A stretch of DNA of 64,000 nucleotides from assembly GCA_003104935.1 (NCBI GenBank), contig PQAE01000004.1, forward strand, positions 6,835 through 70,834, read 5' to 3'. Origin of the DNA: Parcubacteria group bacterium (GTDB lineage Bacteria; Patescibacteriota; Patescibacteriia; UBA1558; GWA2-36-10). The translations under genes and the position numbers were made by a program. The notes beneath the pieces are model-generated. The model searched no databases, had not been told where the DNA came from, and worked only from the letters and a program-made list of their open reading frames with translations. Shown piece by piece: positions 3,762-54,172 of the stretch (its first letter is position 1; each line of letters opens with the position of its first letter).

Positions 3762-3767
3762 AAAAAT

Positions 3768-4781: not shown

Positions 4782-4786
4782 TTCAA

Positions 4787-6390: not shown

Positions 6391-6668
6391 TTTTGGTAAA
6401 AGAAAATCAGGACCCCCGTATCGCGCTTAGCGCGACGGGGCAAGCCCATCAAAATATAATGTTCTCAAAAGACCCGAGTAAATCGGGTACTATAAAATTT
6501 GGTAAAAGAGAATCAGGACCCCGTAGAAAACGCATGGCTCGTTCTACGGGGCAAGCCCATCGAAATATAATGTTTTAAAAAAAGACCCGAGTAAATCGGG
6601 TATTGTAATACTCGGTAAATGAAATCAGGACCCATTTAATCGCCCCAAGTGATCAAATAAGTCCTGAT
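6391..6668. repeat. intergenic tandem repeat, ~2.5 units of 107-113 bp, each with conserved hairpins and a TATAAT box
   Basis: Unit 1 runs 6391-6497, unit 2 6498-6610, and a partial unit 3 from 6611. Shared blocks are GGTAAAAGARAATCAGGACCCCGTA, a variable CCCCGTA...TACGGGG stem-loop, CGGGGCAAGCCCATCRAAATATAATGTT, and the AGACCCGAGTAAATCGGGT hairpin. Confidence 0.7.
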
Positions 6669-6851
6669 GACTTCTGTGTTTGTACGATATTCAATTGTCG
6701 ATGATCTTGAGCGGCTTAGAGCCACAACATTTTGTTTTTTTATTTCTGTCACGCTAAGCGCGACTTTTTTGTTGTTTTGAGCCTTAAACGGTTCAAGATT
6801 CTGTGTAAAGTACCTTAGATAACTATATTATAGCATATTTTTGGGCATTAA

Positions 6852-7442: not shown

Positions 7443-7508
7443 TTTAGTCGCTTTAATTAGTTTGTGTTTTGTGCTTTAATTATGCTAATCTTATTATATT
7501 ATAGCTAT

Positions 7509-8489: not shown

Positions 8490-9030
8490 TCAGGTGGAGG
8501 GGCTGTTATCCGGCTATTTGCGGAAAAGTCGCGCCGAGTTGGCTCGACCATTTTTGAAAGGTACCATTTTAGATTTTGGTTGTGGGGTGGGTTATTTAGC
8601 TGGTTTTGTTCCGAATAGCAAATATATTGGAGTTGATCGCGACCGAGAATCTCTGCACGTAGCCAAGAAAAACTATCCCCAACATGTTTTTATTGAACAA
8701 TTGCCGCCGTCAGGAAGCTACGATACAATCATCGCTTTAGCCGTAATCGAACACTTGCCAGATCCGAAAGCTCTGTTGTCAGTACTATCTGCGCTACTGG
8801 CCGAGGGCGGAAAAATAATAATTACCACGCCCCATCCGGTCTCCGATAATGTGCATTGGTTTGGTGCAAAATTGGGCATTTTTAGCCGAGCCGCTCATGA
8901 AGAGCACGAACATTTATTTGATAAAAAATCGTTTAACCTTATTCTGCCCGCCAGCGGCCTAGAGATCCTGGAGTATCGGCGTTTTTTGTTTGGTATGAAT
9001 CAGCTATTTGTCATTGGGAAAAATGTTTAG
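8482..9030 (+). CDS. class I SAM-dependent methyltransferase
   Basis: ILDFGCGVGYLAGF motif I and IIALAVIEHLPDP motif. Overlaps the GT2 stop by 8 nt, suggesting an operon. Confidence 0.7.
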   Translation: MADQVEGLLSGYLRKSRAELARPFLKGTILDFGCGVGYLAGFVPNSKYIGVDRDRESLHVAKKNYPQHVFIEQLPPSGSYDTIIALAVIEHLPDPKALLSVLSALLAEGGKIIITTPHPVSDNVHWFGAKLGIFSRAAHEEHEHLFDKKSFNLILPASGLEILEYRRFLFGMNQLFVIGKNV

Positions 9031-10741: not shown

Positions 10742-11795
10742 AATGGAAAAAGACCGTGTCGCCGTCGGCCATAATATATTCTTTACCTTCCATGCGGATT
10801 AGTCCTTTTTCTTTAGCCTGATTCCAACCGCCGGCACTTAGCAATTCCTCCCAGCCGACTATCTCGGCGCGGATAAATCCTTTTTCAAAATCCGTGTGGA
10901 TCACACCGGCGGCTTGGGGAGCTTTACTACCGCGGCTGACAGTCCAAGCCTTGGTCTCCATGGGTCCGGTCGTTATAAAAGTAATTAAGTCAAGCAGTTT
11001 ATAACTAGTAGTGATCAGGTTATCCAGTCCGCTGTGAGCTACACCCAGCTGCTCTAAATATTCTTTAGCTTCCTCCGCAGATAATTCCGCCAGCTCGGCT
11101 TCGATCTTGGCGCAGATAGCCAGACTATTGGCCGGCAATTGTAAGTCCTGACTGAGCTGGTCTTCACTAATATTGTAGAGATAGATAATCGGCTTGGTAG
11201 TCAGTAAATTTAGCGGTTTAATTATTTTTTTCTCCTCCGTACTCAAATCTAAAGTATTAATCAACTGGTTCTGATCCAAGGCATTTTTTATTTTTTCTAT
11301 GGCAGCGTACTCTACTTCGGCGATTTTGTCGTGACTGCTTTTTAACTTGTCCTTAGCTTTGGATAAAAATTTTCCCACAGTCTCCAGATCAGCCAGGACT
11401 AGTTCCGTGTTGATAATCTCCTTGTCATATTCCGGATCCACCTTACCGTGGACATGGATGACATTATCATCATTAAATTTTCGCACTACCTGGACAATAG
11501 CATCAACTTCGCGGATATGAGTGAGGAATTTATTACCCAAGCCCTGGCCTTCGGAAGCGCCCTTGACTAGTCCAGCGATGTCCACAAATTCTATAGTAGT
11601 GGGGACCACTTTTTCCGACTTAGATATGACTGCTAATTTACTGAGCCGTTCGTCCGGCACGGCCACTACACCCACATTGGGGTCGATAGTACAAAAAGGA
11701 TAATTGAAAGCATCGACCTTATTTTTAGTTAAGGCCTGGAAAAGTGTTGATTTGCCTACGTTCGGTAGGCCGACGATGCCAAGGGAAAAAGACAT
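10734..11795 (-). CDS. ychF: ribosome-binding ATPase YchF
   Basis: [24 protein letters not shown]1 motif, TGS domain at the C-terminus. Start taken at the internal ATG 11795; the 18-aa extension of the track ORF is not conserved. Confidence 0.9.
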
Positions 11796-40053: not shown

Positions 40054-42459
40054 ATGGCCAGCAAAAAATTTATCCTCTGGTTTAATCAGATAGGCATCAA
40101 AGATGTTTCCAAAGTCGGCGGCAAAGGAGCGTCGCTCGGTGAGATGTACCGCAAATTATCGGCTCAGGGTGTGCCCATACCAAACGGTTTTGCGGTCACG
40201 GCCGAGGCCTACGACTATTTTGTCACGGTGACGGGGTTAAAAAAACAAATCAAACAGGTTTTACAGGGATTAGACACCCATGATATCCATAGTTTGCAGA
40301 GCGCGGGACAGAAAATCAGACAACTGATCATCGCCGCGGATTTTCCGGCGGATTTGAAGAAATATATTGCGGCGGCCTATCAGAAATTATCGGCTACCTA
40401 CAAAATAAAGAATGTTGATGTGGCGGTGCGTTCCAGTGCTACGGCGGAAGACTTGCCGGACGCATCTTTTGCCGGCCAGCAGGATACTTATCTCAATGTT
40501 GAGGGCAACGCCGAATTATTAGAGGCCTGCAGGCGCTGTATGGCTTCGCTTTTTACCGATCGGGCTATTTCCTATCGCCACGACAAGGGTTTTGACCATT
40601 TCAAGGTCAAACTTTCCATCACCATCCAAAAGATGGTGCGCTCGGATTTGGCCTGTTCGGGCGTGATGTTTTCTATTGATACGGAATCGGGTTTTCGTCA
40701 GGCCGTGCTGATCAACTCTATTTATGGTCTGGGCGAATATATAGTCCAGGGCATGGTCAATCCCGACGAATTTTATGTGTTTAAACCCACTTTAAAGGCG
40801 GGTAAAAATGCAATTATCGGCCGGCGATTGGGATCAAAAAAAATAAAACTAGTCTATGATTCCAAATCCCGGACTAATACCAAGAAAATGGCGGTGACAC
40901 CGGCGGAGCAAAATAAATTTGCGCTGACGGACAGAGAGGTGATGCAGTTAGCGCGTTGGGCGGTAGATATCGAACAGCACTATAAAAAACCGATGGATAT
41001 GGAATGGGCCAAAGACGGGCGGACCGGAAAATTGTTTATCGTCCAGGCCCGGCCGGAAACCGTGGTCTCTCAGGAAGATCCTAATACTTTGACGGAATAT
41101 AAATTAGCGCACAGCGGTAAAGTGATCGTGGAGGGCGCCTCGGTAGGCAACAAGATCGGTCAGGGCACGGCCCATATTATCCTCAATGCCAAACAGATCG
41201 ACCAGTTTAAAAAAGGCGAAGTGCTGGTGACCGAGATGACTGATCCCGATTGGGAACCGATTATGAAAATCGCTTCGGCGATTATTACTAACTCCGGCGG
41301 TCGCACCTGCCACGCGGCTATTATTTCCCGGGAGCTGGGCATCCCCTGTGTAGTGGGCACAAGAAATGGCACGGACAGAATCAAGAACGGCCAGTTGCTG
41401 ACGGTCTCCTGCGCTGAAGGCGAGCGGGGTCGCGTCTATCAGGGATTATTAAAATACAATATCAAAAAAACAAATCTGCGTCAGATAAAAAAACCGCAGA
41501 CCAAGATCATGATGAACGTGGGTAATCCTGAGACGGCCATGCAGGATAGTTTTATACCCAATGACGGCGTAGGGCTGGCCCGTGAAGAATTTATCATTTC
41601 CAATTATATCCGCATTCACCCGCTGGCTTTATTGAATTACGGAAAATTAAAGGACCAGTCGGCTAAAAAACAGATTGCCAAACTGACGGCCAGCTATAAA
41701 AATAAAGCCCGGTATTTTGTGGATAAATTGGCCGAGGGTGTGGCTACTATCGCCGCCAGTTTTTATCCCAAGGATGTCATTATCAGGCTATCAGATTTTA
41801 AATCCAATGAATATGCCAATCTGATCGGCGGCCGCGCTTTTGAAGCGATTGAGTCCAACCCCATGATCGGTTGGCGGGGAGCGAGTCGCTACTATGACAG
41901 CAAGTATTTGCCGGCTTTTATCTTAGAATGCAAAGCTTTGTATAAAGTGCGCCAAGATATGGGCCTGAAAAATCTTAAAATAATGGTACCGTTTTGCCGC
42001 ACCATAGAAGAGGGCAAAAAAGTGTTAAAAATCATGGCCGATAACGGTCTGGTGCGCGGCCGTGATGGTCTGCAGGTCTATGTGATGTGTGAGATTCCTT
42101 CAAATGTGATTTTGGCTACAGAGTTTTCCAAGATTTTTGACGGATTTTCTATCGGCTCCAATGATTTGACTCAGTTGACCCTAGGTGTGGATCGCGACAG
42201 CGAATTGGTCGCTCACGTCTATGATGAAAGAAATGAGGCCGTCAAAACTCTAATCAGGCAAGTCATCAAAACCGCTAAAAAAATGCACCGTAAGATCGGC
42301 ATTTGCGGACAGGCACCATCTGACTTTCCTGATTTTGCCCAGTTTTTGGTCGGTGAAGGCATTGATTCTATTTCTCTTAACCCCGATACGGTCATTAAGA
42401 CCATGATCGCTATCAATCAGACGGAAAGAAAATTACGCCGGCGGCGAAAAAAGAGATGA
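40054..42459 (+). CDS. ppsA: phosphoenolpyruvate synthase (pyruvate, water dikinase)
   Basis: 801 aa. N-terminal ATP-grasp region (GGKGASLGEMY), central phospho-histidine domain (GGRTCHAAIISRELGIPCVVG), C-terminal PEP-utilising TIM barrel. Confidence 0.9.
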   Translation: MASKKFILWFNQIGIKDVSKVGGKGASLGEMYRKLSAQGVPIPNGFAVTAEAYDYFVTVTGLKKQIKQVLQGLDTHDIHSLQSAGQKIRQLIIAADFPADLKKYIAAAYQKLSATYKIKNVDVAVRSSATAEDLPDASFAGQQDTYLNVEGNAELLEACRRCMASLFTDRAISYRHDKGFDHFKVKLSITIQKMVRSDLACSGVMFSIDTESGFRQAVLINSIYGLGEYIVQGMVNPDEFYVFKPTLKAGKNAIIGRRLGSKKIKLVYDSKSRTNTKKMAVTPAEQNKFALTDREVMQLARWAVDIEQHYKKPMDMEWAKDGRTGKLFIVQARPETVVSQEDPNTLTEYKLAHSGKVIVEGASVGNKIGQGTAHIILNAKQIDQFKKGEVLVTEMTDPDWEPIMKIASAIITNSGGRTCHAAIISRELGIPCVVGTRNGTDRIKNGQLLTVSCAEGERGRVYQGLLKYNIKKTNLRQIKKPQTKIMMNVGNPETAMQDSFIPNDGVGLAREEFIISNYIRIHPLALLNYGKLKDQSAKKQIAKLTASYKNKARYFVDKLAEGVATIAASFYPKDVIIRLSDFKSNEYANLIGGRAFEAIESNPMIGWRGASRYYDSKYLPAFILECKALYKVRQDMGLKNLKIMVPFCRTIEEGKKVLKIMADNGLVRGRDGLQVYVMCEIPSNVILATEFSKIFDGFSIGSNDLTQLTLGVDRDSELVAHVYDERNEAVKTLIRQVIKTAKKMHRKIGICGQAPSDFPDFAQFLVGEGIDSISLNPDTVIKTMIAINQTERKLRRRRKKR

Positions 42460-42767
42460 AAAAAATAGTCACTATACTTTGTCTTTTGTTAATAATATTT
42501 TTTGCTTGGTATAAAGCTAGAGATATTTATATTTATTTTAGCTATCAAAAAGATAAGCAGGAATTGCCGGCAACTGACTATTATAAATATTTAGGTCTAG
42601 ATTGTTATCAGCAAGGTAAGGATACGTATGGCTGTTGCATGTCTTCCTTAAAAGATATAGCCGCCGGTAATTATAAAGTAGCTCCGCCTGAGGGCTGTCC
42701 GATTGGTTCTGAACCAAAAACTTTGCGTTGTCTAGGGTCGTTAAAGTGGTGTCAGCCGGAAAAATAA
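42456..42767 (+). CDS. small Cys-rich secreted/membrane-anchored protein (7 Cys)
   Basis: Signal-anchor MKKIVTILCLLLIIFFAW. CX..C/CC motifs. Overlaps the ppsA stop (ATGA). Confidence 0.4.
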   Translation: MKKIVTILCLLLIIFFAWYKARDIYIYFSYQKDKQELPATDYYKYLGLDCYQQGKDTYGCCMSSLKDIAAGNYKVAPPEGCPIGSEPKTLRCLGSLKWCQPEK

Positions 42768-42862: not shown

Positions 42863-42950
42863 GGAGGGTTCGCATAGTGGCCTAGTGCACACGCTTGGAA
42901 AGCGTGCAACCCGCAAGGGTTCGAGAGTTCGAATCTCTCACCCTCCGCCA
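42863..42950 (+). tRNA. tRNA-Ser (anticodon GGA), type II with long variable arm, CCA encoded
   Basis: Acceptor GGAGGGT/ACCCTCC. Anticodon stem CACGC/GCGTG with loop TTGGAAA. T-arm GAGAG-TTCGAAT-CTCTC. 88 nt. Confidence 0.9.
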
Positions 42951-42965
42951 AATATATTAATGCAC

Positions 42966-43052
42966 GCCGAAGTGGTGAAATTGGTATACACGCACGGTTC
43001 AGAGCCGTGTGACCGTGAGGTCATGGAGGTTCAAATCCTCTCTTCGGCACCA
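42966..43052 (+). tRNA. tRNA-Leu (anticodon CAG), type II, CCA encoded
   Basis: Acceptor GCCGAAG/CTTCGGC. Anticodon loop TTCAGAG. Variable arm TGACCGTGAGGTCA. T-arm GGAGG-TTCAAAT-CCTCT. Confidence 0.9.
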
Positions 43053-43118
43053 AATTTCGACAAGAGTGACTTGTCGAAATTTGTCCCGAACGAAGTTGAG
43101 GGACAACGTACTAGATAA

Positions 43119-43194
43119 GGGCTGTTAGCTCAGTTGGTAGAGCGCTACATTCGCATTGTAGAGGTCGGGAGTTCGACTCTCCCACAGTCCACCA
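43119..43194 (+). tRNA. tRNA-Ala (anticodon CGC), G3:U70 identity pair present, CCA encoded
   Basis: GGGCTGT...ACAGTCC acceptor with G3-T70. Anticodon loop TTCGCAT. D-arm GCTC-AGTTGGTA-GAGC. T-arm GGGAG-TTCGACT-CTCCC. Confidence 0.9.
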
Positions 43195-43272
43195 TGGTCG
43201 CATGGCTTCCACCTTCCCCCAGACTTGATCCGGGGTTCGGTGGACAGGCAGTTTCGTAATTCTTGAATATTG

Positions 43273-43349
43273 GGGCATGTAGCTCAGTTGGTTAGAGCGC
43301 TACATTCACATTGTAGAAGTCGGAGGTTCGAGTCCTCCCATGCCCACCA
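43273..43349 (+). tRNA. tRNA-Val (anticodon CAC), CCA encoded
   Basis: Acceptor GGGCATG/CATGCCC. Anticodon loop TTCACAT. T-arm GGAGG-TTCGAGT-CCTCC. Confidence 0.9.
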
Positions 43350-43569
43350 TTTTTGAGAATCTCGCAGCGCCGAGCTATAGGCGAGGCGCGAAGACCCCGG
43401 CGCAGGCCGGGGCAGGTGCGACCACCATCCTTCGCTCCTTGTTACACTCGGAGCTACGGATGGCAGGCCATTTTACAAACAAAATTTGCCTTAACTTTTC
43501 GGGCCATTGGCCCGCCAAAGCTCAAAGGCGTAGTCGGGGGTTAGCGCAGTTTAGTGAGAGAGTTATAAT

Positions 43570-43644
43570 CGGGGTGTAGCGCAGTGGTAGCGCGCACGGT
43601 TCGGGACCGTGAGGCCGTGGGTTCAAATCCCACCACCCCGACCA
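43570..43644 (+). tRNA. tRNA-Pro (anticodon CGG), C1:G72, CCA encoded
   Basis: Acceptor CGGGGTG/CACCCCG. Anticodon loop TTCGGGA. T-arm GTGGG-TTCAAAT-CCCAC. TATAAT sits directly upstream at 43564-43569. Confidence 0.9.
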
Positions 43645-43768
43645 ACTTAAACTTTTTTCAAATTCAAAGGCGGTTTTAAAAATAAATACGCGGCTCGGTA
43701 GCCGTTTTTTGTTTTCTCTAGTGGTAGTTTAGCTTCGCTTTTGTTATAATGTATAAGGTTTGTAACAT

Positions 43769-45472
43769 ATGCTGTGGAAAAAAATTACTAAAACATTTAC
43801 AATATTTTTTTCGCTTTTTGGCTGGCTGATAGCGGCCCTACCTCCTTTTAATATTGAGATACCGAACGCTCGAGCGGCGGTGCCTTCCGGTGTCATCGTG
43901 GCCTGGCCTTCTACCAATGATACTATACCCACAGGATGGTCAGAGGTGACGACTCTGTCAACATATTATTTGGAAGGCACTACCATTGATCCGTCGGCTG
44001 TAGCCGGCGGTAATACTACCCATACTCATACCTCGCCGACCCATACTCATACCGGCCATACTCATACCGGTACCACCGGAAATGGCAGTAGTGCTAGTGT
44101 GGCCACTACTAATGCCGGTACTGCCGGCGCGGCCAATGCTCATGCTCATGCCGTTACTGTCGGTGCTTCCGCCAGTAATGTTGCACAATCGGCCAATCTA
44201 GGCACTGCTTCCAATGATCCGCCCTATACTACCGTTATCTGGATAAAGTCAAACGGGACCACCGACATACCGGTCGGAGCCTGGGCCTATTTTAATGCTA
44301 CTGCGCCCAGTGGCTGGTCAAGTCAAAGTGCCGGCAGATATTTAAAAGGTACGACTAACGGCGGTAATGGCGGAGCTACTGGCGGCACATCAAATGCCCA
44401 TACACATACGGATAGCGGACATACCCATACCGAAAGCGCCCACACTCATACCGGAACTACCAACGCCACAGCAAGCAAGGTGAATACTGCGGCCGGTTCA
44501 GGATATTCTACCGGGGGTCATACGCACAGCGTATCTAGTAGTGGTGTAACAGCCACAGAACAGCCAGGGGTGGGAGTTTTGGCTAATGCTGACGGTCAGC
44601 CGCCCTTTTATATATTGAATACTATTCAAAATGATAATGCTTCCGCTTCCTTGCCGCTAAATGTGATTGCCATGTGGGACGGAACAGTGGACACGATTCC
44701 GGCCGGCTGGAAACTCTGCGACGGCAATAATAGCACCCCTAGTCTTAATGATAAATTCATAAAGGGGGCTAGCACTGATTTAGAGATTAGCAGTACCGGC
44801 GGTGCTTTGACTCACACCCATGCCGCCAGCACAGCGCACAGTCATACCGTAGATTCACACACCAATACTTTTACTGTAAGCGGAGACACTGGATCGCAGG
44901 TAGTTAACGCTAGTAAAACCGGAAGAAGTATTATCGGATATGATCATACCCACACCTTGTCGATTACCGGCGGGGGAACCACCGGAACTGGAACCATTAC
45001 CGCCGACGCCAACTCGGTCAATGATAATCGGCCGCCCTATAAAGAAATAGTCTATATCCAGTACCAGGGCGTGGCCATATCTATCAGTTTGACGACTGAC
45101 GGCTCAGTGAATTTTGGCACCTTGTCAGAAAACACCACTCAGGATAATACCGCCAGTGGTGTCAATGATGTGGAGGTGGTGTCGGTAGATAGCGGCACCG
45201 CCAAACTCTCCATAAAGAGTACAGTTTTTACGCAGGGAGGAAATACTTGGACCCTGGGCGCCAGTAACGGCACTAACCAAGTGAAGTGGGAGTTTGCTTC
45301 ATCTACTACCAATTGGCTGACTTTTTCCAGCGCTGGCACTGATTATACTCTGGAAAGTAGCGTGGCGGCGCCTAACACCAGAAATATTTATTTACGCCTA
45401 ACCACTCCTTCGCCTTCCAGCTGGTATACTGCGTTTAGTGCTTCGGTCACTGTTACCGCGTCAGCGCCATGA
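43769..45472 (+). CDS. secreted protein with three tandem phage-tail-collar-type repeats and a C-terminal beta-rich module
   Basis: Signal/TM TIFFSLFGWLIAALPPF. Repeats built as VIVAWPSTNDTIPTGWSEV / VGAWAYFNATAPSGWSSQ / VIAMWDGTVDTIPAGWKLCDGNN, each followed by G/HT-rich stretches (HTHTSPTHTHTGHTHTG) and NDPPYTTVIWIK / GQPPFYILNTI / DNRPPYKEIVYIQ endings, as in tail collar (Collar) domains. The C-terminal module is shared with the next gene. Confidence 0.6.
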   Translation: MLWKKITKTFTIFFSLFGWLIAALPPFNIEIPNARAAVPSGVIVAWPSTNDTIPTGWSEVTTLSTYYLEGTTIDPSAVAGGNTTHTHTSPTHTHTGHTHTGTTGNGSSASVATTNAGTAGAANAHAHAVTVGASASNVAQSANLGTASNDPPYTTVIWIKSNGTTDIPVGAWAYFNATAPSGWSSQSAGRYLKGTTNGGNGGATGGTSNAHTHTDSGHTHTESAHTHTGTTNATASKVNTAAGSGYSTGGHTHSVSSSGVTATEQPGVGVLANADGQPPFYILNTIQNDNASASLPLNVIAMWDGTVDTIPAGWKLCDGNNSTPSLNDKFIKGASTDLEISSTGGALTHTHAASTAHSHTVDSHTNTFTVSGDTGSQVVNASKTGRSIIGYDHTHTLSITGGGTTGTGTITADANSVNDNRPPYKEIVYIQYQGVAISISLTTDGSVNFGTLSENTTQDNTASGVNDVEVVSVDSGTAKLSIKSTVFTQGGNTWTLGASNGTNQVKWEFASSTTNWLTFSSAGTDYTLESSVAAPNTRNIYLRLTTPSPSSWYTAFSASVTVTASAP

Positions 45473-45574
45473 TTTTTTGCTTTAAATTAATTTTTGTTTA
45501 CGGGTAGTAGTGGCGTATTTTTGGTTTTTTTGAAATTGTGCTATAATAATACCGAAAATAAATAATAAAATATT

Positions 45575-46096
45575 ATGGAAAAGTCAAAAAATTCATTAGT
45601 TTTAGTAAGTATCTTAATGGTGGCTGGTTTAGCCATCATGATTCACGCTCGGGCGGCAACCGTCGTGACCGCCACTGTAACGGTGCGTAGTTTAGCCGTA
45701 TCACTAACACCGACCAGTTTTGATTATGGGACTATGGATTCTAATACTTCTTCCAGCACCTTGCAGATGTTCGCCGGTGCCGGTATTGTGGTTACCAACG
45801 ACGGTTCAGTTAACGAAGATTTTTATCTGACCGGTTCGGATACGGGCGCCTGGACCATTAACACGGCTGTGGCTTCAAATGTTTATGTGCACAAGTTTTG
45901 TAACGATACCGACGATGATTGCACTTCGCCTCCGACCAGTTATACTAATATGTCTACGGGAGCGACACCTTTAGATACAGCCATTGCCGAGGATGGAACC
46001 ACTGCTTTTCAGCTCCGGATTACCACGCCTAATCCCAGCACTATTTTTACTTCCCAAGAACCCACAGTGACGGTCACAGCCAGTGCCAGTAGTTAG
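45575..46096 (+). CDS. secreted beta-rich protein homologous to the C-terminal module of the upstream collar-repeat protein (possible TasA/camelysin-like fold)
   Basis: Signal peptide ...IMIHARA-ATVV. Shares ...SFDYGTMDSNTSSS... and the ending ...FQLRITTPNPSTIFTSQEPTVTVTASA with ...VNFGTLSENTT... and ...YLRLTTPSPSSWYTAFSASVTVTASA of 43769-45472. Confidence 0.45.
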   Translation: MEKSKNSLVLVSILMVAGLAIMIHARAATVVTATVTVRSLAVSLTPTSFDYGTMDSNTSSSTLQMFAGAGIVVTNDGSVNEDFYLTGSDTGAWTINTAVASNVYVHKFCNDTDDDCTSPPTSYTNMSTGATPLDTAIAEDGTTAFQLRITTPNPSTIFTSQEPTVTVTASASS

Positions 46097-46117
46097 CGCT
46101 TTTATTAAATTATACTT

Positions 46118-46714
46118 ATGAAAAAATTGATCCTGTTTGCTTTGGCAGTTGCTCTGGCAATACCTCTGTTAGTTTCAGCGAAGATAGGTGTTGGTATTGG
46201 AACGGGAAAAATAGTAGTAGATCAGCAATTAAAGGCGGGCCTTATTTATAATATCCCTAATTTAGTAGTGATTAATACCGGCGACGAACCTTCGGATTAT
46301 AGTGTCGGCACTCAACGGGTAGAGGGCCAAAAAGAGTTTATCCCCGCTGCCGATTGGTTCAGTTTTGAACCAGACATCTTTTATTTAGAACCCGGACAAA
46401 CTCAAATCGTTAAGATAAAATTGACTTTGCCTATCCGGGGAGCGAAACCGGGAGATTATTTCTCCTTTGTTCAGGCTTATCCCGTTAAGAAAGAAATGCC
46501 AAAAGGCACCAGTGTCGGAGTGGCGGCCGCGGCCAAATTGTATTTTTCGGTTTCCCCGGCCAATTTTTTTCAGGGGATATATTATCGCTTAGCTTCGCTG
46601 ATCGTGCTGACTGCGCCCTGGAGCTACATCGTCTTTGTCTTGCTGGCGATTGCTACTCTGGGAGTTCTTATTCAAAAAAATATCAAGTTTAAAGTCAGTA
46701 TCGGTCGCAAATAA
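46118..46714 (+). CDS. cell-surface protein with signal peptide and C-terminal TM anchor
   Basis: MKKLILFALAVALAIPLLVSA signal. Beta-rich middle (LEPGQTQIVKIKLTLP...GAKPGDYFSF). C-terminal hydrophobic helix LIVLTAPWSYIVFVLLAIATLGVLI followed by basic residues. Confidence 0.45.
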   Translation: MKKLILFALAVALAIPLLVSAKIGVGIGTGKIVVDQQLKAGLIYNIPNLVVINTGDEPSDYSVGTQRVEGQKEFIPAADWFSFEPDIFYLEPGQTQIVKIKLTLPIRGAKPGDYFSFVQAYPVKKEMPKGTSVGVAAAAKLYFSVSPANFFQGIYYRLASLIVLTAPWSYIVFVLLAIATLGVLIQKNIKFKVSIGRK

Positions 46715-46729
46715 ATTTTTTGCCCACTG

Positions 46730-47788
46730 ATGTCAAAAGCAAGCCGATTTTTATTAGAAATATTTCCCCTCTTAATCGTGGGGATATTTTTTGTTTGTTT
46801 CCAAATTTACGCGCTTAATAATCAAGTTAATCCTACTATTAGGGTCAGAGTTTGTGGAAACTTTATCGCCGAAGCTGGCGAGGAATGCGATACAAACGAT
46901 TTTGCGGGAAAAACTTGCGCTACTTATGGTCACAATACCGGAGTTTTGACCTGCAATCCGGATTGTACGGTCAATGCTACGGCGTGTTCTACCACTGTCG
47001 TGCCTCCGTCTCCGGGTGGAGGCGGTGGCGGTGGCGGTGGCGGAGCGCCGGCGCCGACGGTGACTAGAATAAATTTTTTGGGCCGAGCCTATCCTTTGAG
47101 TAAAGTGGTTTTGTTAAAAGATGGACAGTTAGCGATCGAAACTATCTCCGGGCCGGATGCTGTTTTTTCCTTGTCTCTGACCGGTTTATCCGCCGGTAAT
47201 TACAATTTTGCGGTCTATAGTGAAGATGCTGATCACCGCCGCTCCGCTTTATTTACTTTTCCGGTCTATATCACCAGCGGAGCAGCCACGACCGTTAGTG
47301 GAATATTTTTATCACCCACCATCGCTATCGATAAGATCGAGGTTAAGTATGGAGATGATCTGACCATTTTTGGGCAAAGTCTGCCAACGGCGACAGTGAC
47401 GATCAATGTGAACTCTAACCCCTCAATCTTAAAACAAACCCAGACCGATGCTAACGGAGTTTACCTTTATAAATTTGATACCACGCAGGTAGAGAAAGGC
47501 GACCACTCAGTCCGTTCCAAAACCGTAGCCGCCGCCGACATTAGCCCCTATGGTTTGAGTCTGGCCTTTAAAGTCGGAGAAAAAAATACCTTGAGTAATG
47601 GTGAGATCAACCCACCGGCGTCCGGCCGGGGAGATGTCAATAATGATGAGAGAATCAATCTGGTAGATTTTTCCATAGTCGCTTATTGGTATAAGAGAAC
47701 TAAGCCGCCGGCGGCGGCGGATCTAAATAGTGACGGCAAAGTCGATTTGATAGATTTTAGTATTCTTGCTTATTATTGGACAGGGTAG
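46730..47788 (+). CDS. secreted Cys-rich protein with poly-Gly linker and C-terminal tandem dockerin (type I) Ca-binding repeats
   Basis: Signal/TM LLEIFPLLIVGIFFVCF. Cys-rich block (CGNFIAEAGEECDTNDFAGKTCATYGHNTGVLTCNPDC) and G10. The two C-terminal segments DVNNDERINLVDFSIVAYWY and DLNSDGKVDLIDFSILAYYW fit the dockerin D-x-N-x-D-G-x-(I/V)-(N/D)-x-x-D-(F/L) pattern. Confidence 0.7.
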   Translation: MSKASRFLLEIFPLLIVGIFFVCFQIYALNNQVNPTIRVRVCGNFIAEAGEECDTNDFAGKTCATYGHNTGVLTCNPDCTVNATACSTTVVPPSPGGGGGGGGGGAPAPTVTRINFLGRAYPLSKVVLLKDGQLAIETISGPDAVFSLSLTGLSAGNYNFAVYSEDADHRRSALFTFPVYITSGAATTVSGIFLSPTIAIDKIEVKYGDDLTIFGQSLPTATVTINVNSNPSILKQTQTDANGVYLYKFDTTQVEKGDHSVRSKTVAAADISPYGLSLAFKVGEKNTLSNGEINPPASGRGDVNNDERINLVDFSIVAYWYKRTKPPAAADLNSDGKVDLIDFSILAYYWTG

Positions 47789-47936
47789 TGAAAAGCGACA
47801 TCCATTACTTTTTAATAAACATGAATAAAAAAATATTTTCATAAGTCAGGGCAGAAAATTTTAGTCGCTTTCTACTACCCCGGGACCCAGTTATAAGTCG
47901 TTCCAGGATAAGTCAAAAAGATAAATTATTAATCTT

Positions 47937-48209
47937 ATGGTCAAATTTTATTACGTTTATGTGTTGCAGAGCAAAGTCACAGGTGATCTATATAAGGGAT
48001 TGACCACGCATTTAAATCAACGTTTACAACAACATAATAAGGGATTCAATTTTTCTACAAAAGGAAAAAGGCCGTGGATGATAATTCATTATGAGGCATA
48101 TCGTGACGAAAAAGATGCGAGACGGCGAGAAAAGTATTTGAAAACGAGCCAGGGAAGTCGCACGCTAAAACGTATGTTAAAAGAGTATTTTTATGCGCAA
48201 AAAAGATAA
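47937..48209 (+). CDS. GIY-YIG nuclease family small protein (YhbQ/UPF0213-like)
   Basis: FYYVYVLQSKVTGDLYKGLTTHLNQRLQQHN is a GIY-YIG-type motif. 90 aa. Confidence 0.6.
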   Translation: MVKFYYVYVLQSKVTGDLYKGLTTHLNQRLQQHNKGFNFSTKGKRPWMIIHYEAYRDEKDARRREKYLKTSQGSRTLKRMLKEYFYAQKR

Positions 48210-48260
48210 TTTTGGCTGTTTGCTACTATCCAGTAGGTTGATGAAGGGTTTGATACAAAA

Positions 48261-49145
48261 ATGAAACTGAAAATACAACTAATTTTATTTTGCTCCCTGG
48301 GTTTTTTTTGGCTAACCAGCTCGCCGGTTATGGCCGCCCAATTTTCCTTTCAGGCTCCGGCCACTGAAGTGGGTCTGGATAAAATCTGGACCGCCGAGTT
48401 ACGGGTAGATACGCAGGAGCAATATATCAATGCCCTGCAGGGAAAGATCTCATATCCGACGGATAAATTAGCAGTGACCGACATCAAAGATAACGGGTCA
48501 ATTATTAATTTTTGGGTGGAACGTCCGCGCGCTCAGGCCGGAGAAATATCGTTTTCCGGTATTATCCCCGGAGGCTATCTGGGCCAGGGACCGCTGTTTA
48601 CTGTTTATTTCAAAACCAGAACGCGCGGTCTGGCTACGCTTATCCAAAAAGAGGGGCAAGCCCTGCTTAATGACGGCCAGGGCACGGCTACGCCAGTAGA
48701 GTTGGCCAGTTATAATCTGAATATTTCCGTCCAAGCCCCGGAACAAAATGTTATTGCCGTAGAGACCAGGGACACTGAAGCGCCGGAGAAATTTGACCCG
48801 CTGATTACCCGGAGTCAGGATCTGGCCGGAAATAAATACGTGCTGATTTTTTATGCCCAAGATAAAGGATCGGGCATTGACCACTACGAGATCAAAGAAG
48901 GTTTGTGGGGATTTAAGCGGGCCACTAGCCCTTATGTCTTAGCGCGTCAGAAATTGGATCACACTATTTTAGTCAAAGCCGTAGATCGTTACGGTAATTT
49001 TACAATAGCCAAGGTCAGTCCGGTGGAGCCGGCGGTGTGGTATGAAAAATTACCTATTTTTGCTATAATATATATAATTGTCGGAGTCATTATCCTGCTC
49101 ATGATCAGAGTTTTATGGCGCAAAATAAAAACAAAACGCAAATAA
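48261..49145 (+). CDS. membrane-anchored surface protein with N-terminal cohesin-like domain, Ig-like second domain and C-terminal TM
   Basis: Signal peptide ...SSPVMA-AQF. Residues ~25-165 show a cohesin-type pattern (GKISYPTDKLAVTDIKDNGSIINFWV...GEISFSGIIPGG...LFTVYFKTRTRGLATL...ALLNDGQGT) homologous to the next gene. C-terminal TM LPIFAIIYIIVGVIILLMI plus RKIKTKRK. Confidence 0.5.
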   Translation: MKLKIQLILFCSLGFFWLTSSPVMAAQFSFQAPATEVGLDKIWTAELRVDTQEQYINALQGKISYPTDKLAVTDIKDNGSIINFWVERPRAQAGEISFSGIIPGGYLGQGPLFTVYFKTRTRGLATLIQKEGQALLNDGQGTATPVELASYNLNISVQAPEQNVIAVETRDTEAPEKFDPLITRSQDLAGNKYVLIFYAQDKGSGIDHYEIKEGLWGFKRATSPYVLARQKLDHTILVKAVDRYGNFTIAKVSPVEPAVWYEKLPIFAIIYIIVGVIILLMIRVLWRKIKTKRK

Positions 49146-50872
49146 AAAATAGAGCCCTTATTTTCGGTGTTTTTTTCGCGATACTACTTGTTTTTTGGAT
49201 TGTCCCCCGGGTGCAGGCGGCGACGATCTATCCTTCACCTACTTCCGGATCTTATGATGTCGGCAAAACTTTTAATGTTGGTGTCTATTTGTCCAGTGCG
49301 GATCAGGCGGCCAATGCGGTTTCTGGTACTCTGAGTTTTCCGTCGGATAAATTAGAAGTCACCGGAGTTTCCAAGAGCGGCTCGATCATAAATCTATGGG
49401 TGCAGGATCCGAGTTATAGCGCCGGCACAGTCAGTTTTGAGGGCATTGTCCTTAACCCCGGGTTTAAGGGTTCGGGCGGTAAAATTATTTCCGTCAGTTT
49501 TAAAACTAAATCGCCGGGCACGGCGAATCTGACTTTTACTTCCGGTTCAGTATTGGCTAATGACGGCCAGGGAACAAATATTTTAAGCGGTTTTGGTAGC
49601 GCCAGTTTTGGTGTCGAGGTGCCAACTATCGGCCCGGCAGCTCCAGAGGCGGAGACTCCGGCGGTGGCATCGGGCGTCTTGCTCGCACCGCCGATCACTT
49701 CGGAGACCCACCCCAATCCGGACTCCTGGTACAATAACAATAAAGCGATTTTTAGCTGGCAATTGCCGGCGGGCACTACGGCGACCCAGCTACTCGTGGG
49801 CGAAAAACCTCAGGTTACTCCCACAGTTACTTATAGTCCGGCCATTGCCACTCGGGCTTTGGACGCTCTAGATGACGGCGTCTGGTATCTGCATGTGCGC
49901 CTCAAAAACGCCAACGGCTGGGGCGGTATTACCCATTTCCGTTTTCAAATTGACACAAAAAATCCGGATTTTTTTAACATGAAAGTTTTGGAAGAGGCGG
50001 ACAAGACTATCCCCACCCGAACTTTATCTTTTGAGGCCGCTGACGAGATGTCCGGCATCAGCCATTATGAGATCCAGATTGACGACGGAGAATCTCAAAA
50101 ATGGATTGATGATGGTAGCCACAAATATACTACGCCGGCGCTGGGTCCCGGGCGACATGTGCTGATAGCCCGAGCAGTGGATAAGGCCGGCAATTATCTC
50201 AGTAGTTTTAATGAATTTTTTATTGATGCGCTACAGCCGCCGCAAATTACCGATTATTCCAAAGAACTGACCGCCGGCAGCATGTTTGTAGCCAAGGGCA
50301 CGGCTTATCCTAACTCTCAGGTAGTGGTCTGGCTACAAAAAGATAAAGCAGACGCCCAGAGCGCTACGGTCAGTTCTGACAAAGAGGGAAAATTTACTTT
50401 TATCGCCGACCAAAAATTAGCTGACGGCTTATATCAGCTCTGGGCTGAAGTGATCGATCAGCGGGGGGCTAAGAGCAGTCCCTCGGAAAAACTAACGGTC
50501 ATGGTCCAGCCGCCAAAAATCGTTCGGGTCGGTTCCTGGGTAGTCAGTATTCTCTCGGTGATTATTCCCCTGATCGCTCTGGTATTCCTATTGGTATTTA
50601 TGCTAATCTTCAGTTATCGCAAGTGGAGTATCATGCGCGGCCGGGTACGGCGCGAGGTCGGCGAGGCCGAGTCGGTCTTGCACAAAGAGTTCAACAACCT
50701 ACGCAAGAGAATCCGGGCTCATCTGAAGATTTTGGAGCAGGTCAGCAAGAAGAAGAAATTAACCAAGGAAGAACAGTTGACCATGGAAGAATTACGCCAG
50801 GAATTAGCGTCGGCCGAGCATAATGTCGAGAAGGAGATCGAAGATATCCGTAGAGAAGTTAATAAAAAATAA
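49115..50872 (+). CDS. membrane-anchored surface protein with N-terminal cohesin-like domain, additional beta domains, C-terminal TM and charged coiled-coil cytoplasmic tail
   Basis: Signal peptide ...VPRVQA-ATIY. Cohesin-like block SGTLSFPSDKLEVTGVSKSGSIINLWV...GTVSFEGIVLNPG...IISVSFKTKSPGTANLTF...VLANDGQGT. Shared second domain (SGISHYEIQIDDG...ARAVDKAGNY vs SGIDHYEIKEG...KAVDRYGNF). TM WVVSILSVIIPLIALVFLLVFMLIF, then an E/K/R-rich tail. Confidence 0.5.
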   Translation: MAQNKNKTQIKNRALIFGVFFAILLVFWIVPRVQAATIYPSPTSGSYDVGKTFNVGVYLSSADQAANAVSGTLSFPSDKLEVTGVSKSGSIINLWVQDPSYSAGTVSFEGIVLNPGFKGSGGKIISVSFKTKSPGTANLTFTSGSVLANDGQGTNILSGFGSASFGVEVPTIGPAAPEAETPAVASGVLLAPPITSETHPNPDSWYNNNKAIFSWQLPAGTTATQLLVGEKPQVTPTVTYSPAIATRALDALDDGVWYLHVRLKNANGWGGITHFRFQIDTKNPDFFNMKVLEEADKTIPTRTLSFEAADEMSGISHYEIQIDDGESQKWIDDGSHKYTTPALGPGRHVLIARAVDKAGNYLSSFNEFFIDALQPPQITDYSKELTAGSMFVAKGTAYPNSQVVVWLQKDKADAQSATVSSDKEGKFTFIADQKLADGLYQLWAEVIDQRGAKSSPSEKLTVMVQPPKIVRVGSWVVSILSVIIPLIALVFLLVFMLIFSYRKWSIMRGRVRREVGEAESVLHKEFNNLRKRIRAHLKILEQVSKKKKLTKEEQLTMEELRQELASAEHNVEKEIEDIRREVNKK

Positions 50873-50883
50873 TCATAAATTTT

Positions 50884-51810
50884 ATGCCCACTCAAAACAA
50901 CGCCGCCAAGTTTGCTTTTTTCTACATGCTATCGCTGATCGCCCTGGTCTTTGTGGCCGTGGCCAGCGGTACGATTTTATTTCAGATCATCAATAAGCTG
51001 GTCCCGGATATCGCCAATATCTATAGTAGTATGTATTTGGATGAGGCTATGCGTTTTGGGATCTCCGCGCTGATTATCGCCAGTCCCATATTCTATATTA
51101 CCGCCCGGCAGATCTACAAAAGTTTGTACAACGGTTCCCTGTCGTCGGATTCCGGCGTACGCAAATGGCTGACTTATCTAATACTCTTAGTTTCTATCAT
51201 CGTGATGATCGCCTGGCTGATCGCTATTTTAAACGGATTCCTGAGCGGCGAATTGACCGCCAAGTTTGTCCTAAAGGCTTTGACGGCGATTATTATCTCC
51301 GGCATTGTTTTTTCTTTTTATTTTTACGACATCCGGCGAGATGATATTTTAAACAAAGTTGATAAAGTAATTAAAATTTATTTTTTTGCTTCTCTGGCGG
51401 TAATCGTCGTTATCCTGATAGCGGCTTTTATGAATGTCGAATCTCCCGCCGTGGCTCGGGAAAAGAAAATCGATCAGCAGGTAATCAATAATTTTTACAC
51501 CATTCAAAATGACGTCGACGATTATTATAATACCTATAAAAAAATGCCGGCTAGCCTAAGCGATTTGACTAAGGAGTATAATAATCTGACGCCCGAGGTT
51601 TTAAATAATCCGTCGGATAACACCCCCATTGAGTATAAGGTCAATGGAGATAGGGGCTTTGAGCTCTGCACCACTTTTAAATCCGCCAATAAAGGTAAAG
51701 GGCAGCTCTATCAGGATACTAACTGGCTCCACGATGCCGGTTATCAATGCTTGCGACAAAATGTGAGCGATTACCCTAAAGGTATCGTGCCGGCTCCGAT
51801 GATTCCCTAA
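50884..51810 (+). CDS. hypothetical membrane protein (DUF5671-like N-terminal 4-TM domain, extracytoplasmic C-terminal domain)
   Basis: 308 aa. Four hydrophobic helices in the first 180 aa. The C-terminal domain carries Cys residues. Confidence 0.4.
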   Translation: MPTQNNAAKFAFFYMLSLIALVFVAVASGTILFQIINKLVPDIANIYSSMYLDEAMRFGISALIIASPIFYITARQIYKSLYNGSLSSDSGVRKWLTYLILLVSIIVMIAWLIAILNGFLSGELTAKFVLKALTAIIISGIVFSFYFYDIRRDDILNKVDKVIKIYFFASLAVIVVILIAAFMNVESPAVAREKKIDQQVINNFYTIQNDVDDYYNTYKKMPASLSDLTKEYNNLTPEVLNNPSDNTPIEYKVNGDRGFELCTTFKSANKGKGQLYQDTNWLHDAGYQCLRQNVSDYPKGIVPAPMIP

Positions 51811-52283
51811 TGCCCAAGCAGATTTATCGCGCTTATTATCATAGCCCGTTGGGCTGGCTGGAGTTGGTAGCCACAAGCCAAGGCCTCATAGCCATTAATT
51901 ACAAAAATAAAAAAGGGAGCGTTGTTGCGACGCACCCTTTTTTAACCCGGGCGCAAAAGCAACTGGCCGAATATTTTCAGGGCCACCGCTTTGTTTTTGA
52001 CCTGCTGGTTTATCTGTCCGGTACGCCCTGGCAAAATAAGGTTTATCTAAATCTGGCGCGCGTTCCTTACGGTCGGGTGATTAGCTATCAAGATCTGGCT
52101 ATTTTAGCTGGTGTCGGTAAAGCGGCTCGCGCGGTTGGCCAGGCGGTCAATAAAAATAAATTACCCATTATTATTCCTTGCCATCGGGTCATCGGTAGCG
52201 ACGGTAAATTAATAGGTTATGCCGGCGGATTGGCGAAAAAAATTTGGCTTTTAAGGCACGAAGCTGGTGTTTTGACTAAATAG
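51810..52283 (+). CDS. ogt: methylated-DNA--protein-cysteine methyltransferase
   Basis: Active-site IPCHRVIGSDGKLIGYAGG (PCHRV motif), 157 aa. Confidence 0.9.
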   Translation: MPKQIYRAYYHSPLGWLELVATSQGLIAINYKNKKGSVVATHPFLTRAQKQLAEYFQGHRFVFDLLVYLSGTPWQNKVYLNLARVPYGRVISYQDLAILAGVGKAARAVGQAVNKNKLPIIIPCHRVIGSDGKLIGYAGGLAKKIWLLRHEAGVLTK

Positions 52284-52300
52284 GTCAGATAAATTAAGAT

Positions 52301-52377
52301 AGGAGCATGAATCCCGTTAATAATTAGCTTTAGCGGGCAGGGAGAAAATAATCAGAGACTAGTAATTTTAACGGGAT
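52301..52377 (+). promoter_or_regulatory. structured leader with SD-preceded mini-uORF (MNPVNN*) and ~14-bp inverted repeat ATCCCGTTAATAATT / AATTTTAACGGGAT sequestering the dnaG start
   Basis: AGGAG at 52301-52305. uORF ATGAATCCCGTTAATAATTAG runs 52307-52327. The 3' arm overlaps the dnaG ATG at 52376. Same core motif as the uvrD leader. Confidence 0.55.
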
Positions 52378-54172
52378 GAATCCGGTGGAGGAAGTAAAAA
52401 ATCGTCTAGATATAGTAGAGATCATCTCTGGCTATATTAGTTTATCGCAGGCCGGGGCTAATTGGCGGGCGCGCTGTCCTTTTCACAATGAAAAGACGCC
52501 TAGTTTTATGGTCTCCAAAGAAAAACAAATTTGGCATTGCTTTGGCTGTGACAAAGGCGGCGACATCATCACTTTTGTGCAGGAGTACGAGGGTATTACC
52601 TTTGGCGAAGCTCTGCGCATTCTGGCGGAAAAAGCCGGGGTGGTGCTGGAAAATCAGCGCTTTGAAAAAAAGGTAGACTACAATCCCTTTTACCAATTGA
52701 ATAAATTAGCGGCGGATTTTTATCAAGCCAAACTATCGAATAGCGACGAGGCCAGTATTAAAACCGGAAAATATTTACTCAATCGCGGTCTGACCGAAGC
52801 CAGCATAAAAAAATGGCAATTAGGATTATCCGGCTCGGCTTGGGATGAACTATATTTATACTTAAGAGATCAGGGGTTTAGTGACGAACATATTTTCCAG
52901 GCGGGATTGATTGTAAAAAAGAAAAGCGGATTAGGTTATGTGGACCGTTTCCGTCAGCGCTTGATGTTTCCCATCGCTGACGCTCAGAGCCGAGTGGTCG
53001 GTTTTACTTCGCGCACCTTGGCGCATATTATTTTTGCCGAAGATGATTTTGGCGGTAAATATATCAATAGTCCCCAGACGGCCATCTATGATAAGAGCCG
53101 CATTCTTTACGGTTGGCACTTAGCTAAAGAAAGCATCCGGCAGAAAAAGTATTTGATTATTGTGGAAGGAAATATGGATGCCATCATGGCCCATCAGGCC
53201 GGCACTAATAACACCATTGCCGTTTCCGGCACTGCCTTGACCATCGAACAGCTACGTTTGATTAAGCGTTACGCTAATAATGTCATTCTGGCTTTTGACG
53301 GAGATGCCGCCGGGTCGCGGGCCGCCTTCCGCAGTTTTGCCCTGGGCTGGCAGGAAGACATGAATCTGAAAATCCTGGTTTTGTCCGGCGGCGACGATCC
53401 GGCCGATATGGTCAAAACAGATAAGGAGCGCTGGTTACAAGCGGTCAAAGATTCGGTGCCGGTTATGGATTACTATTTCAAACGCATTGTGGCCGGCGTG
53501 GACCTGAATCGCTCAGACCATAAGAAATTGGCGGTGGGCAAACTACTGCCGATAATCAAGTTTTTGAAAAGCCGGGTAGAACAGGCGCACTATCTGCAAA
53601 ATCTATCCGATAAACTGCAGATCCCTTTAAATATTTTGCAGGGCGATCTGGAACAGGCCAAGTCCTTTATTGATAAACCGGCGGTCAATAATATAGAAAC
53701 CCCAAGGACCGAGCGGGAAAGAAAAGAAGCTTTATTGCTCTTATCGGAAAAGTTATTAGCCTTAGCTTTTTTTAAACCGCTTTATCTGGAAAAAATTATC
53801 AGTGATCTGGCGCCGGAATTTTTGGATGAGGAGCTCCAGGGCCTTTACAGGAAGGTGATTATTTATTATACTAAGCAACATAATTTGGACAATTTTGCGG
53901 ACGCCGGCGATTTATTATTGACGGAAAAAAACGACTATATCCGTCTGGTCATGCTGGGAGAGATGGAATATGGCGATTATAGCGAAAAGGACCTGCAGGG
54001 CGACTTTTTTTCTCACACTAAGCGTCTTAAATTAAGAAAGTATGAGGCCGAGCGCGATCTGCTGATTGCACAATTGCGTCAGGCCGAGCTCAGCGGTGAT
54101 CAGGATCGCCAAAATTCCGCCATGCACCAAATAAATTTACTTAATAAGGATATAAATAAATTATCTAGTTAA
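52376..54172 (+). CDS. dnaG: DNA primase
   Basis: [23 protein letters not shown]. Zinc-ribbon [11 protein letters not shown]...[15 protein letters not shown] (IVEGNMDAI...AFDGDAAG). Confidence 0.93.

Follow-up and report, generated by a model that had tools for sequence, protein, structure and literature searches.

A conserved Patescibacteria envelope operon combining predicted cohesin and dockerin proteins with a WxL-cluster-like unit

A run of seven open reading frames (ORFs), all on the + strand, lies in a 64,000-nucleotide (nt) stretch of DNA from a Parcubacteria group bacterium (assembly GCA_003104935.1, contig PQAE01000004.1, positions 6,835 to 70,834), which was analysed at its full length and is called the window below. 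Six of these genes, named g1 to g4, g6 and g7 (the fifth is a GIY-YIG gene and keeps that name), encode predicted surface proteins (Table 1) and probably belong to an envelope operon conserved in Patescibacteria, in which a cohesin–dockerin reading is supported at the level of both domains and gene order. The proteins are already in public databases, g1 being 100% identical to protein C3F02_01470 of a Parcubacteria metagenome-assembled genome (MAG) and g4 to C3F02_01485. A preliminary description of this DNA had listed seven consecutive same-strand genes with exported products. Coordinates and strand agree with the ORF list of the window, and a hydrophobic, signal-like segment is found at the N-terminus of six of the proteins, the GIY-YIG protein falling outside that set. 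A C-terminal transmembrane helix followed by a basic tail is found in g3, g6 and g7. These predictions of export and membrane insertion come from a crude hydropathy scan, not from SignalP or TMHMM.

Table 1. Genes and features of the operon in window coordinates; the last five rows use the coordinates of the locus named in the first column.
Feature	Position	Strand	Length	Description
g1	43769-45472	+	567 aa	signal-like N-terminus, triple collar head, C-terminal shared module
g1 collar repeats	43877-45070	+		residues about 37-165, 166-292 and 293-434; three to four HxH motifs each
g1 C-terminal shared module	45071-45472	+		residues ~435-567; W-T-L motif with invariant W; WxL-like by position and motifs
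g2	45575-46096	+	173 aa	shared module only, predicted secreted
g3	46118-46714	+	198 aa	short-form homologue of the WxL-interacting protein (WxLIP): signal peptide, DUF916/PGBD-like immunoglobulin (Ig) domain, C-terminal transmembrane helix, basic tail
g4	46730-47788	+	352 aa	predicted secreted stalk: signal, six-Cys module, Gly10 linker, two Ig-like domains, dockerin
g4 dockerin	47627-47788	+		residues 300-352; type-I-like, two near-symmetrical Ca-loop + helix segments
GIY-YIG gene	47937-48209	+	90 aa	Pfam match
g6	48261-49145	+	294 aa	signal, predicted cohesin ~26-157, small beta domain 181-253, transmembrane helix, basic tail
g7	49115-50872	+	585 aa	signal, predicted cohesin ~36-170, Pro/Ala linker, three more beta domains including Big_13, transmembrane region ~468-505, predicted cytoplasmic tail
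LysM-bearing WxLIP paralogue, L010	5153-6304
LysM-bearing WxLIP paralogue, L017	6278-7465
LysM-bearing WxLIP paralogue, L026	3437-4591
LysM-bearing WxLIP paralogue, L039	6377-7531
LysM-bearing WxLIP paralogue, L051	3627-4790

The genes are tightly packed, with 102 nt between g1 and g2, 21 nt between g2 and g3 and 15 nt between g3 and g4, an overlap of 31 nt between the g6 and g7 ORFs, and only 11 nt between g7 and the next gene. The one wide interval, of 472 nt between g4 and g6 at window 47789-48260, holds the GIY-YIG gene. A scan for promoters and terminators returned nothing above chance level.

The best-defined element is the C-terminus of g4, where residues 301-347 match Pfam Dockerin_1 (PF00404) with 37.9 bits (cut-off 22.9, E 2.1e-9) and where the best PDB sequence matches are cellulosomal dockerins. 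As the preliminary description had read from the sequence, two segments are present, DVNNDERINLVD followed by FSIVAYWY and DLNSDGKVDLID followed by FSILAYYW, and both 20-mers consist of a complete Ca-loop pattern, D-x-N-x-D-x-x-x-[ND]-x-x-D, and then a helix. Most g4 homologues carry PF00404; in 41 homologues the Ca-loop residues are conserved at 90% or more, and no other segment of the protein is as conserved as the dockerin (28 of its 53 columns at least 90% conserved). On profile and motif evidence, the C-terminus of g4 is a bona fide dockerin. The rest of the protein is unusually constant too. It has six invariant Cys and a Gly10 run (the preliminary description had noted a Cys-rich protein with this linker). 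Its architecture, in which a six-Cys module is followed by a Gly-rich linker, a pair of Ig domains and the dockerin, does not vary; sequence identity stays at about 50% throughout the phylum, and no other protein of the set is as well conserved. Pfam and NCBIfam scans found no catalytic, glycoside hydrolase or carbohydrate-binding module (CBM) domain in it. Two candidate relationships were rejected: a Myxococcus-type Cys-rich repeat, considered as a possible identity of the six-Cys module, has no library match, and SEML1_0315 of Southlakia, considered as a g4 orthologue, encodes 927 aa, stands alone and differs in its genomic context.

The preliminary description had seen cohesin-like patterns at the N-termini of g6 and g7. 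These N-termini are paralogous (34% identity, E 2e-25), as is a second domain common to both proteins (E 3e-7). Among 59 aligned g6-family members, 16 match Pfam Cohesin, with a best E of 1e-7, and the top three PDB matches of the g6-family profile are R. flavefaciens (ScaB) cohesins (E 0.017-0.08). An AlphaFold2 model of the g6 domain, made from the family alignment, reaches a predicted local distance difference test (pLDDT) score of 93.8, and its best ~45 Foldseek matches in the PDB are all cohesins, single cohesins superposing with template-modelling scores of 0.7-0.76 and a root-mean-square deviation of about 3 Å. The top match is a C. perfringens cohesin+FN3 structure (2w1n, E 7.8e-10), and further matches include 2vo8, 2jh2, 2xdh and 3ul4. 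Modelling and family profiles together thus support a cohesin fold, that is, a nine-stranded flattened beta-sandwich, for the N-terminal domains of g6 and g7. The preliminary description had named the lack of any cohesin match or prediction as a ground for giving up its reading, and the outcome here is the opposite. Further along g7, Big_13 scores 50.7 bits in Pfam and an OmpL47-type domain stays below threshold, while an 80-residue charged tail after the transmembrane helix is kept in many loci. As for g6, its 634 homologues are about 290 aa long, and all source names that bear a taxon belong to the candidate phyla radiation (CPR)/Patescibacteria. Public gene calls put its start 23 codons further 3' (271 aa); the longer start, of 294 aa, was kept because the family alignment retains the longer hydrophobic N-terminus.

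The genomic arrangement of these genes was surveyed with the g4 alignment in one genome per species. Relatives of g4 are encoded in at least 551 species-level genomes, and of the 80 loci kept almost all are labelled as Patescibacteria lineages (a few records bear other labels), among them Parcubacteria, Paceibacterota, Magasanik-, Wolfe-, Komeili-, Uhr- and Kaiserbacteria, Minisyncoccia and Ca. Microsyncoccus archaeolyticus. In the loci with at least 2.8 kb of sequence 3' of g4, the order g4→g6→g7 on one strand is found without exception (64/64), with median gaps of 6.5 nt between g4 and g6 and of -22 nt between g6 and g7. This trio is far more conserved and widespread than g1-g3. In one further arrangement, at locus L058, the g1-g2-g3-g4 block occurs twice in tandem (1055-5162 and 6544-10987) with identical scores, which might be a recent duplication or an assembly artefact.

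Such regularity bears directly on the notion that the locus might be a mere run of unrelated surface proteins, since an order kept so strictly in hundreds of species, by genes that overlap or nearly touch, cannot be put down to chance. The related possibility of a mini-cellulosome for polysaccharide degradation deserves mention because cohesins and dockerins are classically cellulosomal, and because some proteins elsewhere that carry the C-terminal module of g1 bear CBM_4_9, alginate lyase or BNR domains. It is nevertheless barely credible, because g4 has no glycoside hydrolase or CBM, the operon encodes no glycoside hydrolase at all, and each anchored protein offers a single cohesin where a scaffoldin would be expected. 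The survey also settles the place of the GIY-YIG gene, whose product is a clear member of its family (55.9 bits in Pfam, cut-off 22.6). The other loci have no such gene in the g4–g6 interval; the 472-nt stretch is peculiar to this lineage, and the gene is therefore, judging from gene order, a local insertion in the operon and not a component of the system. GIY-YIG homologues occur near the cassette at varying positions in six other loci (L044, L047, L052, L053, L054 and L080), which suggests that this small gene is mobile or has been inserted more than once.

Upstream of the trio, g3 scores E 4e-47 against the hidden Markov model (HMM) of its own family, which comes in a short form of ~200 aa with one Ig domain and a transmembrane helix, as here, and a long form of 300-370 aa with two Ig domains and a transmembrane helix. 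Pfam WxLIP_PGBD (PF06030) is matched by 21 of 52 family members (best E 5.6e-8), the family profile finds the solved EfmWxLIP1 (9i25, 9i1y) with E 8e-7 and covers both of its domains, and hhalign aligns the family with eight Firmicutes WxLIPs from plasmids over 225 columns (97.6% probability, E 3.8e-12). By these comparisons, g3 is demonstrably a homologue of the Firmicutes WxL-interacting protein, in a short form that is itself PGBD-only. With an iterated profile, a gene of this family is found at most 800 nt 5' of g4 in 44/66 loci, at a median gap of 10.5 nt. Two side observations concern the same family. In five loci (Table 1), a subfamily of WxLIP paralogues encoded 3-5 kb 5' of g4 has a LysM domain on the C-terminal side of its predicted transmembrane helix, so that this peptidoglycan-binding domain would face the cytoplasm unless the topology differs. 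A g2–g3 fusion ORF in another locus (L004:1687-2739) proved to be an artefact, in which a run of N, translated as X, bridges two genes.

The proposed partners of g3 are g1 and g2, which share a module, as had been proposed: the C-terminal 133 residues of g1 are 30% identical to g2 (E 5e-8) and match the HMM of the module family with E 1e-39. The only invariant residue of this module is the Trp of its W-T-L motif (W-T-I in g2); large module proteins have a second invariant Trp in a W-x-x-F context. Loci with a long WxLIP contain a second sequence type of the large and small pair, with a common C-terminal module of ~160 aa whose ending, G-S-Y-x-x-T-L-T-Y-x-A-T-x-x-F, aligns residue by residue with the Firmicutes ending Y-x-A-T-I-x-W-x-L...P. 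The position of the C-terminal WxL is thus taken by V-T-V in the module type of g1 and g2 and by Y-x-A in the second, and hhalign relates the two types to each other weakly (23%, E 9e-4). The WxL motifs align collinearly between module and WxL domains. WxL clusters are defined by a small WxL-only protein, a large protein in which binding domains precede a WxL domain at the C-terminus, and a WxLIP (PMC10599100). The preliminary description had left the beta module, the 173-aa protein paralogous to it and the signal-peptide and transmembrane protein as loose parts; taken together they appear to be a unit with WxL-cluster architecture and a true WxLIP, in which the module itself is not filed as a WxL domain.

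The small proteins have a feature of their own, a highly conserved V-x-A-T-V-T-V strand placed right after the predicted signal cleavage site and not found in the modules of the large proteins. AlphaFold2 leaves this N-terminal strand of g2 unplaced in the monomer, and the Foldseek matches of the g2 model, none of them significant (E>=0.07), are mostly Csu, Fim and Pap pilins. Read together, these features evoke a donor-strand fibre, in which g2 would polymerise or be complemented via its N-terminal strand, g1 would be a two-domain tip adhesin with an N-terminal head and a pilin-like C-terminal domain devoid of a donor strand, g3 would act as a membrane-bound PapD-like chaperone or terminator, and the cohesin–dockerin trio would form the base, a chaperone-usher-like logic in a single-membrane cell. 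Sub-threshold SCPU matches in small proteins of the second type, PapD_N matches in five g3-family members and an AlphaFold2 prediction in which a WxLIP strand inserts into WxL (PMC10599100) point the same way. The structural and Pfam signals are, however, all below significance and the underlying g2 model (from a 10-sequence alignment) has a pLDDT of 49, and the locus encodes no usher, sortase or other polymerisation machinery, all of which makes such a fibre unlikely.

The other half of g1 is its head, in which the three tandem tail-collar-type repeats announced by the preliminary description are plainly recognisable (first and second repeats 36.5% identical, E 9e-22; first and third, E 2e-19; second and third, E 5e-12). 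Eleven HxH motifs are spread over them, largely in register. The third repeat matches the receptor-binding protein of phage JUB59 (PDB 6ov6, E 4e-8) and a tail fibre (9nxk, E 1e-3); g1 as a whole stays below the threshold of Pfam Collar (PF07484; E 0.3, 11.5 bits, cut-off 24), a family carried by several of its homologues. HxH pairs contributed by three chains bind Fe2+ in the JUB59 and T4 fibres (PMC9509320). With three repeats per chain and HxH motifs in register, the head of g1 may form a pseudo-trimer within a single molecule, in which case it would have three to four metal sites. Across the 80 loci the collar head is seen only in the closest relatives of this MAG, and is a lineage-specific head. 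Triple-collar proteins of ~420-430 aa that lack the module are common elsewhere, including in records labelled Chloroflexi and Vicinamibacterales, and the same MAG encodes a second triple-collar protein, C3F02_03080, of 650 aa and without the display module.

Other lineages place quite different domains in front of the module. Its profile collects ~1200 clusters (50% identity) at E<=1e-3, and in 150/150 of the best-scoring proteins of these clusters, which range from 138 to 1706 aa, the module sits at the extreme C-terminus; in 61 large module proteins the N-terminal domains include DUF2341, Gly_rich_2, Laminin_G_3, subtilase, fn3, BNR, MAM, alginate lyase, CBM_4_9 and BclA_C. Because the module stands C-terminal behind diverse domains in these proteins while g4 is invariant, the variable displayed element of the operon would be the g1-type protein. 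This is hard to reconcile with the literal model of the preliminary description, in which g4 is a dockerin-tagged cargo on g6 and g7 receptors and the collar protein a separate adhesin. That model has in its favour the identities of the dockerin and cohesins and the adjacency of their genes. It seems very unlikely all the same, since g4 has no effector domain and hardly varies in architecture or sequence, and g1-g3 form a WxL-type unit of their own. As a side observation, the signal region of roughly one third to one half of the large module proteins contains an unusual motif, W-[IVL]-F-S-G-W-P-x-I-W..(F)PP..I..A-x-A, which g1 has in degenerate form at residues 14-36 (window 43808-43876) as FGWLIAALPPFNIEIPNARA; this motif may serve specifically in sorting or processing.

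The interpretation that we favour, with a confidence only a little above even, is that of one envelope operon with two coupled modules, namely (A) a docking scaffold made of g4, g6 and g7, and (B) a WxL-type display unit made of g1, g2 and g3. In module A, g6 and g7 would be type-I membrane proteins that each present one cohesin outside the cell, atop a stalk of beta domains that is short in g6 and long in g7, with the conserved charged tail of g7 in the cytoplasm. The dockerin of g4 would plug into one or both of these cohesins, which would fix the Ig stalk and the six-Cys knob of g4 to the cell surface. In module B, g3 would hold, from the membrane, the module common to g2 (module only) and g1 (module plus head). 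The head of g1 would then be the working end, its three collar repeats folding as a pseudo-trimer like the tip of a phage receptor-binding fibre and its in-register HxH pairs forming the metal sites. Other genomes exchange this head for lectins, proteases or glycosidases. The whole would have a role in attachment to hosts or substrates.

The operon is flanked by genes of other kinds. On its 3' side (window 50884-54172) are genes for a DUF5671 membrane protein, the methyltransferase Ogt and DnaG, with RpoD further on, and the same neighbours follow the cassette in a Komeilibacteria contig and in another MAG (L001 and L012), which places the operon in a conserved core-gene neighbourhood. Directly 5' of g1 are five tRNA genes (window 42863-43644; Ser-GGA, Leu-CAG, Ala-CGC, Val-CAC and Pro-CGG), of which the Val and Pro genes are ~220 nt apart; a terminator-like hairpin follows at 43690-43705. 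Before these, and directly after the gene for a PEP-utilising enzyme (40054-42459), is a gene (42456-42767) whose 103-aa product contains several Cys, begins with a signal-like segment and has no match in either Pfam or NCBIfam. Within the 64-kb window there is no further gene with a cohesin, a dockerin or the shared module.

Several points weigh against the interpretation in two coupled modules. Searched directly, g6 and g7 have no match to Pfam Cohesin (PF00963) at E<=1, nor do they find a cohesin by direct NCBIfam and PDB sequence searches, although members of their family do. For the shared module, the statistics do not support homology to the WxL domain: Pfam WxL (PF13731) has no match in 24 module members or in the second module type, neither type matches the PDB, hhalign gives 2.9% and 6.5% for the two types against WxL domains from Firmicutes plasmids, little better than controls, and the g2 model is poor. 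About a third of the loci have no WxLIP gene directly 5' of g4, which indicates that the two modules can be uncoupled, and a physical link between them is hypothetical. Finally, the housekeeping neighbours ogt, dnaG and rpoD would fit a general envelope role equally well.

That last point leads to a different view, in which g4, g6 and g7 are primarily a housekeeping scaffold that organises the wall or an S-layer, or links the envelope to the cytoplasm via the g7 tail, the WxL-type genes being optional and host attachment not the main purpose. The greater conservation and spread of the trio, the conserved cytoplasmic tail of g7 and the core-gene neighbours (DUF5671, ogt, dnaG and rpoD) in related genomes would all be expected of such a scaffold, and there is a precedent for indispensability in a stand-alone dockerin-domain protein, different from g4, that is essential in the saccharibacterium Southlakia (PMC10633639). 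We nonetheless give this view a low probability, because a WxLIP gene stands directly 5' of the trio in two thirds of the loci at so short a median distance, and because heads such as lectins, proteases and phage receptor-binding-like domains point to outward-facing functions. The two-module interpretation could also be pushed much further, to a single surface organelle, not described before and shared by a large part of Patescibacteria. In it, a base of two cohesins and one dockerin, wired to the cytoplasm through the g7 tail, would carry a WxLIP-held donor-strand-type fibre or display unit whose interchangeable head, here a metal-stapled pseudo-trimer in one chain that resembles a phage fibre, would set the host or substrate. 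Episymbionts of the Parcubacteria type would then attach mainly by means of this organelle. This bolder proposal is possible but, in our judgement, rather doubtful.

Even in its modest form, the two-module interpretation would matter for our understanding of how these organisms deal with their surroundings. Patescibacteria (CPR) account for a large share of bacterial diversity and are mostly attached to other cells. To our knowledge, the molecules involved are essentially unknown outside Saccharibacteria. An operon composed entirely of predicted surface proteins, one of which has a swappable head of receptor-binding type, is a candidate attachment or display apparatus, and one that also occurs in the archaeon-parasitising Ca. 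Microsyncoccus archaeolyticus (L015), for which enrichment cultures have been described. WxLIP-type systems are extended beyond Firmicutes; as far as we know, WxL clusters had been surveyed only in cultured genomes, mostly of that phylum. The cohesin–dockerin pair would exemplify a fixed structural joint, not an enzyme-recruiting plug. Non-cellulosomal cohesin–dockerin pairs and WxL clusters are each already known, and NCBI names some family proteins 'dockerin type I repeat-containing' or 'cohesin domain-containing'. The preliminary description knew of no described system with these parts in this arrangement. This agrees with our full-text searches of the literature on cohesin, dockerin or WxL in CPR, Patescibacteria or Parcubacteria: they gave no account of this cassette, and in none of them was a WxLIP-type system reported from Patescibacteria or a cohesin–dockerin trio described as coupled to such a system.

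Set beside known systems, the trio most resembles non-cellulosomal or anchoring pairs such as OlpA of C. thermocellum, the Coh/Doc glycosidases of C. perfringens and the Archaeoglobus fulgidus cohesin 2xdh, with which it shares a single surface-tethered cohesin and a C-terminal Ca-loop dockerin on the partner; the best structural matches of g6 (2w1n, 2vo8, 2jh2, 2xdh and 3ul4) fall in this very class. The two near-identical halves of the g4 dockerin recall, in addition, dockerins with a dual binding mode. The differences are that (i) g6 and g7 would be held by a C-terminal transmembrane helix instead of S-layer homology (SLH) domains or a sortase, (ii) two paralogous cohesin proteins of differing stalk length are present for one dockerin protein, (iii) the dockerin protein appears to be a non-enzymatic stalk and g7 has a conserved, predicted cytoplasmic tail, and (iv) the trio shares an operon with a WxLIP gene and its hosts are Patescibacteria. 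The multi-cohesin scaffoldin, dockerin-borne glycoside hydrolases and CBM that characterise cellulosomes are not found here.

The head of g1 has its closest parallels in phage fibre tips (T4 gp12 and gp37, and the JUB59 receptor-binding protein 6ov6), with which it shares a G-W...C-D-G-like core, HxH motifs and an N-x-PP-Y ending. Those fibres are homotrimers with one repeat per chain, whereas g1 has three diverged repeats in a single chain, which would make a pseudo-trimer, and is a cellular protein fused to a surface-display module. Chaperone-usher pili offer a looser analogy, in that a FimH-type adhesin, donor-strand pilins and PapD would be mirrored by the head-plus-pilin-domain layout of g1, the N-terminal strand confined to the small subunit and the Ig-type partner g3, but usher and outer membrane are missing and no similarity score reaches significance.

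The upstream unit is most like the WxL (Csc) clusters of Firmicutes (Siezen, 2006; Hassan & Williamson, PMC10599100), which share with g1-g3 a small protein (g2), a large protein with variable N-terminal binding domains and a C-terminal module (g1), a DUF916(±DUF3324)-transmembrane protein (g3, whose short form parallels the 181-aa EfmWxLIP2) and a W-x-L motif with an invariant Trp. The module differs in that its sequence is not significantly similar either to the Pfam WxL family or to genuine WxL proteins, and in that the type found here does not keep the second WxL motif. The fourth conserved component of the Firmicutes clusters, as seen in plasmid loci, is a small LPXTG wall-anchored protein; here its position is occupied by the cohesin–dockerin trio, which, to speculate, may functionally replace it.

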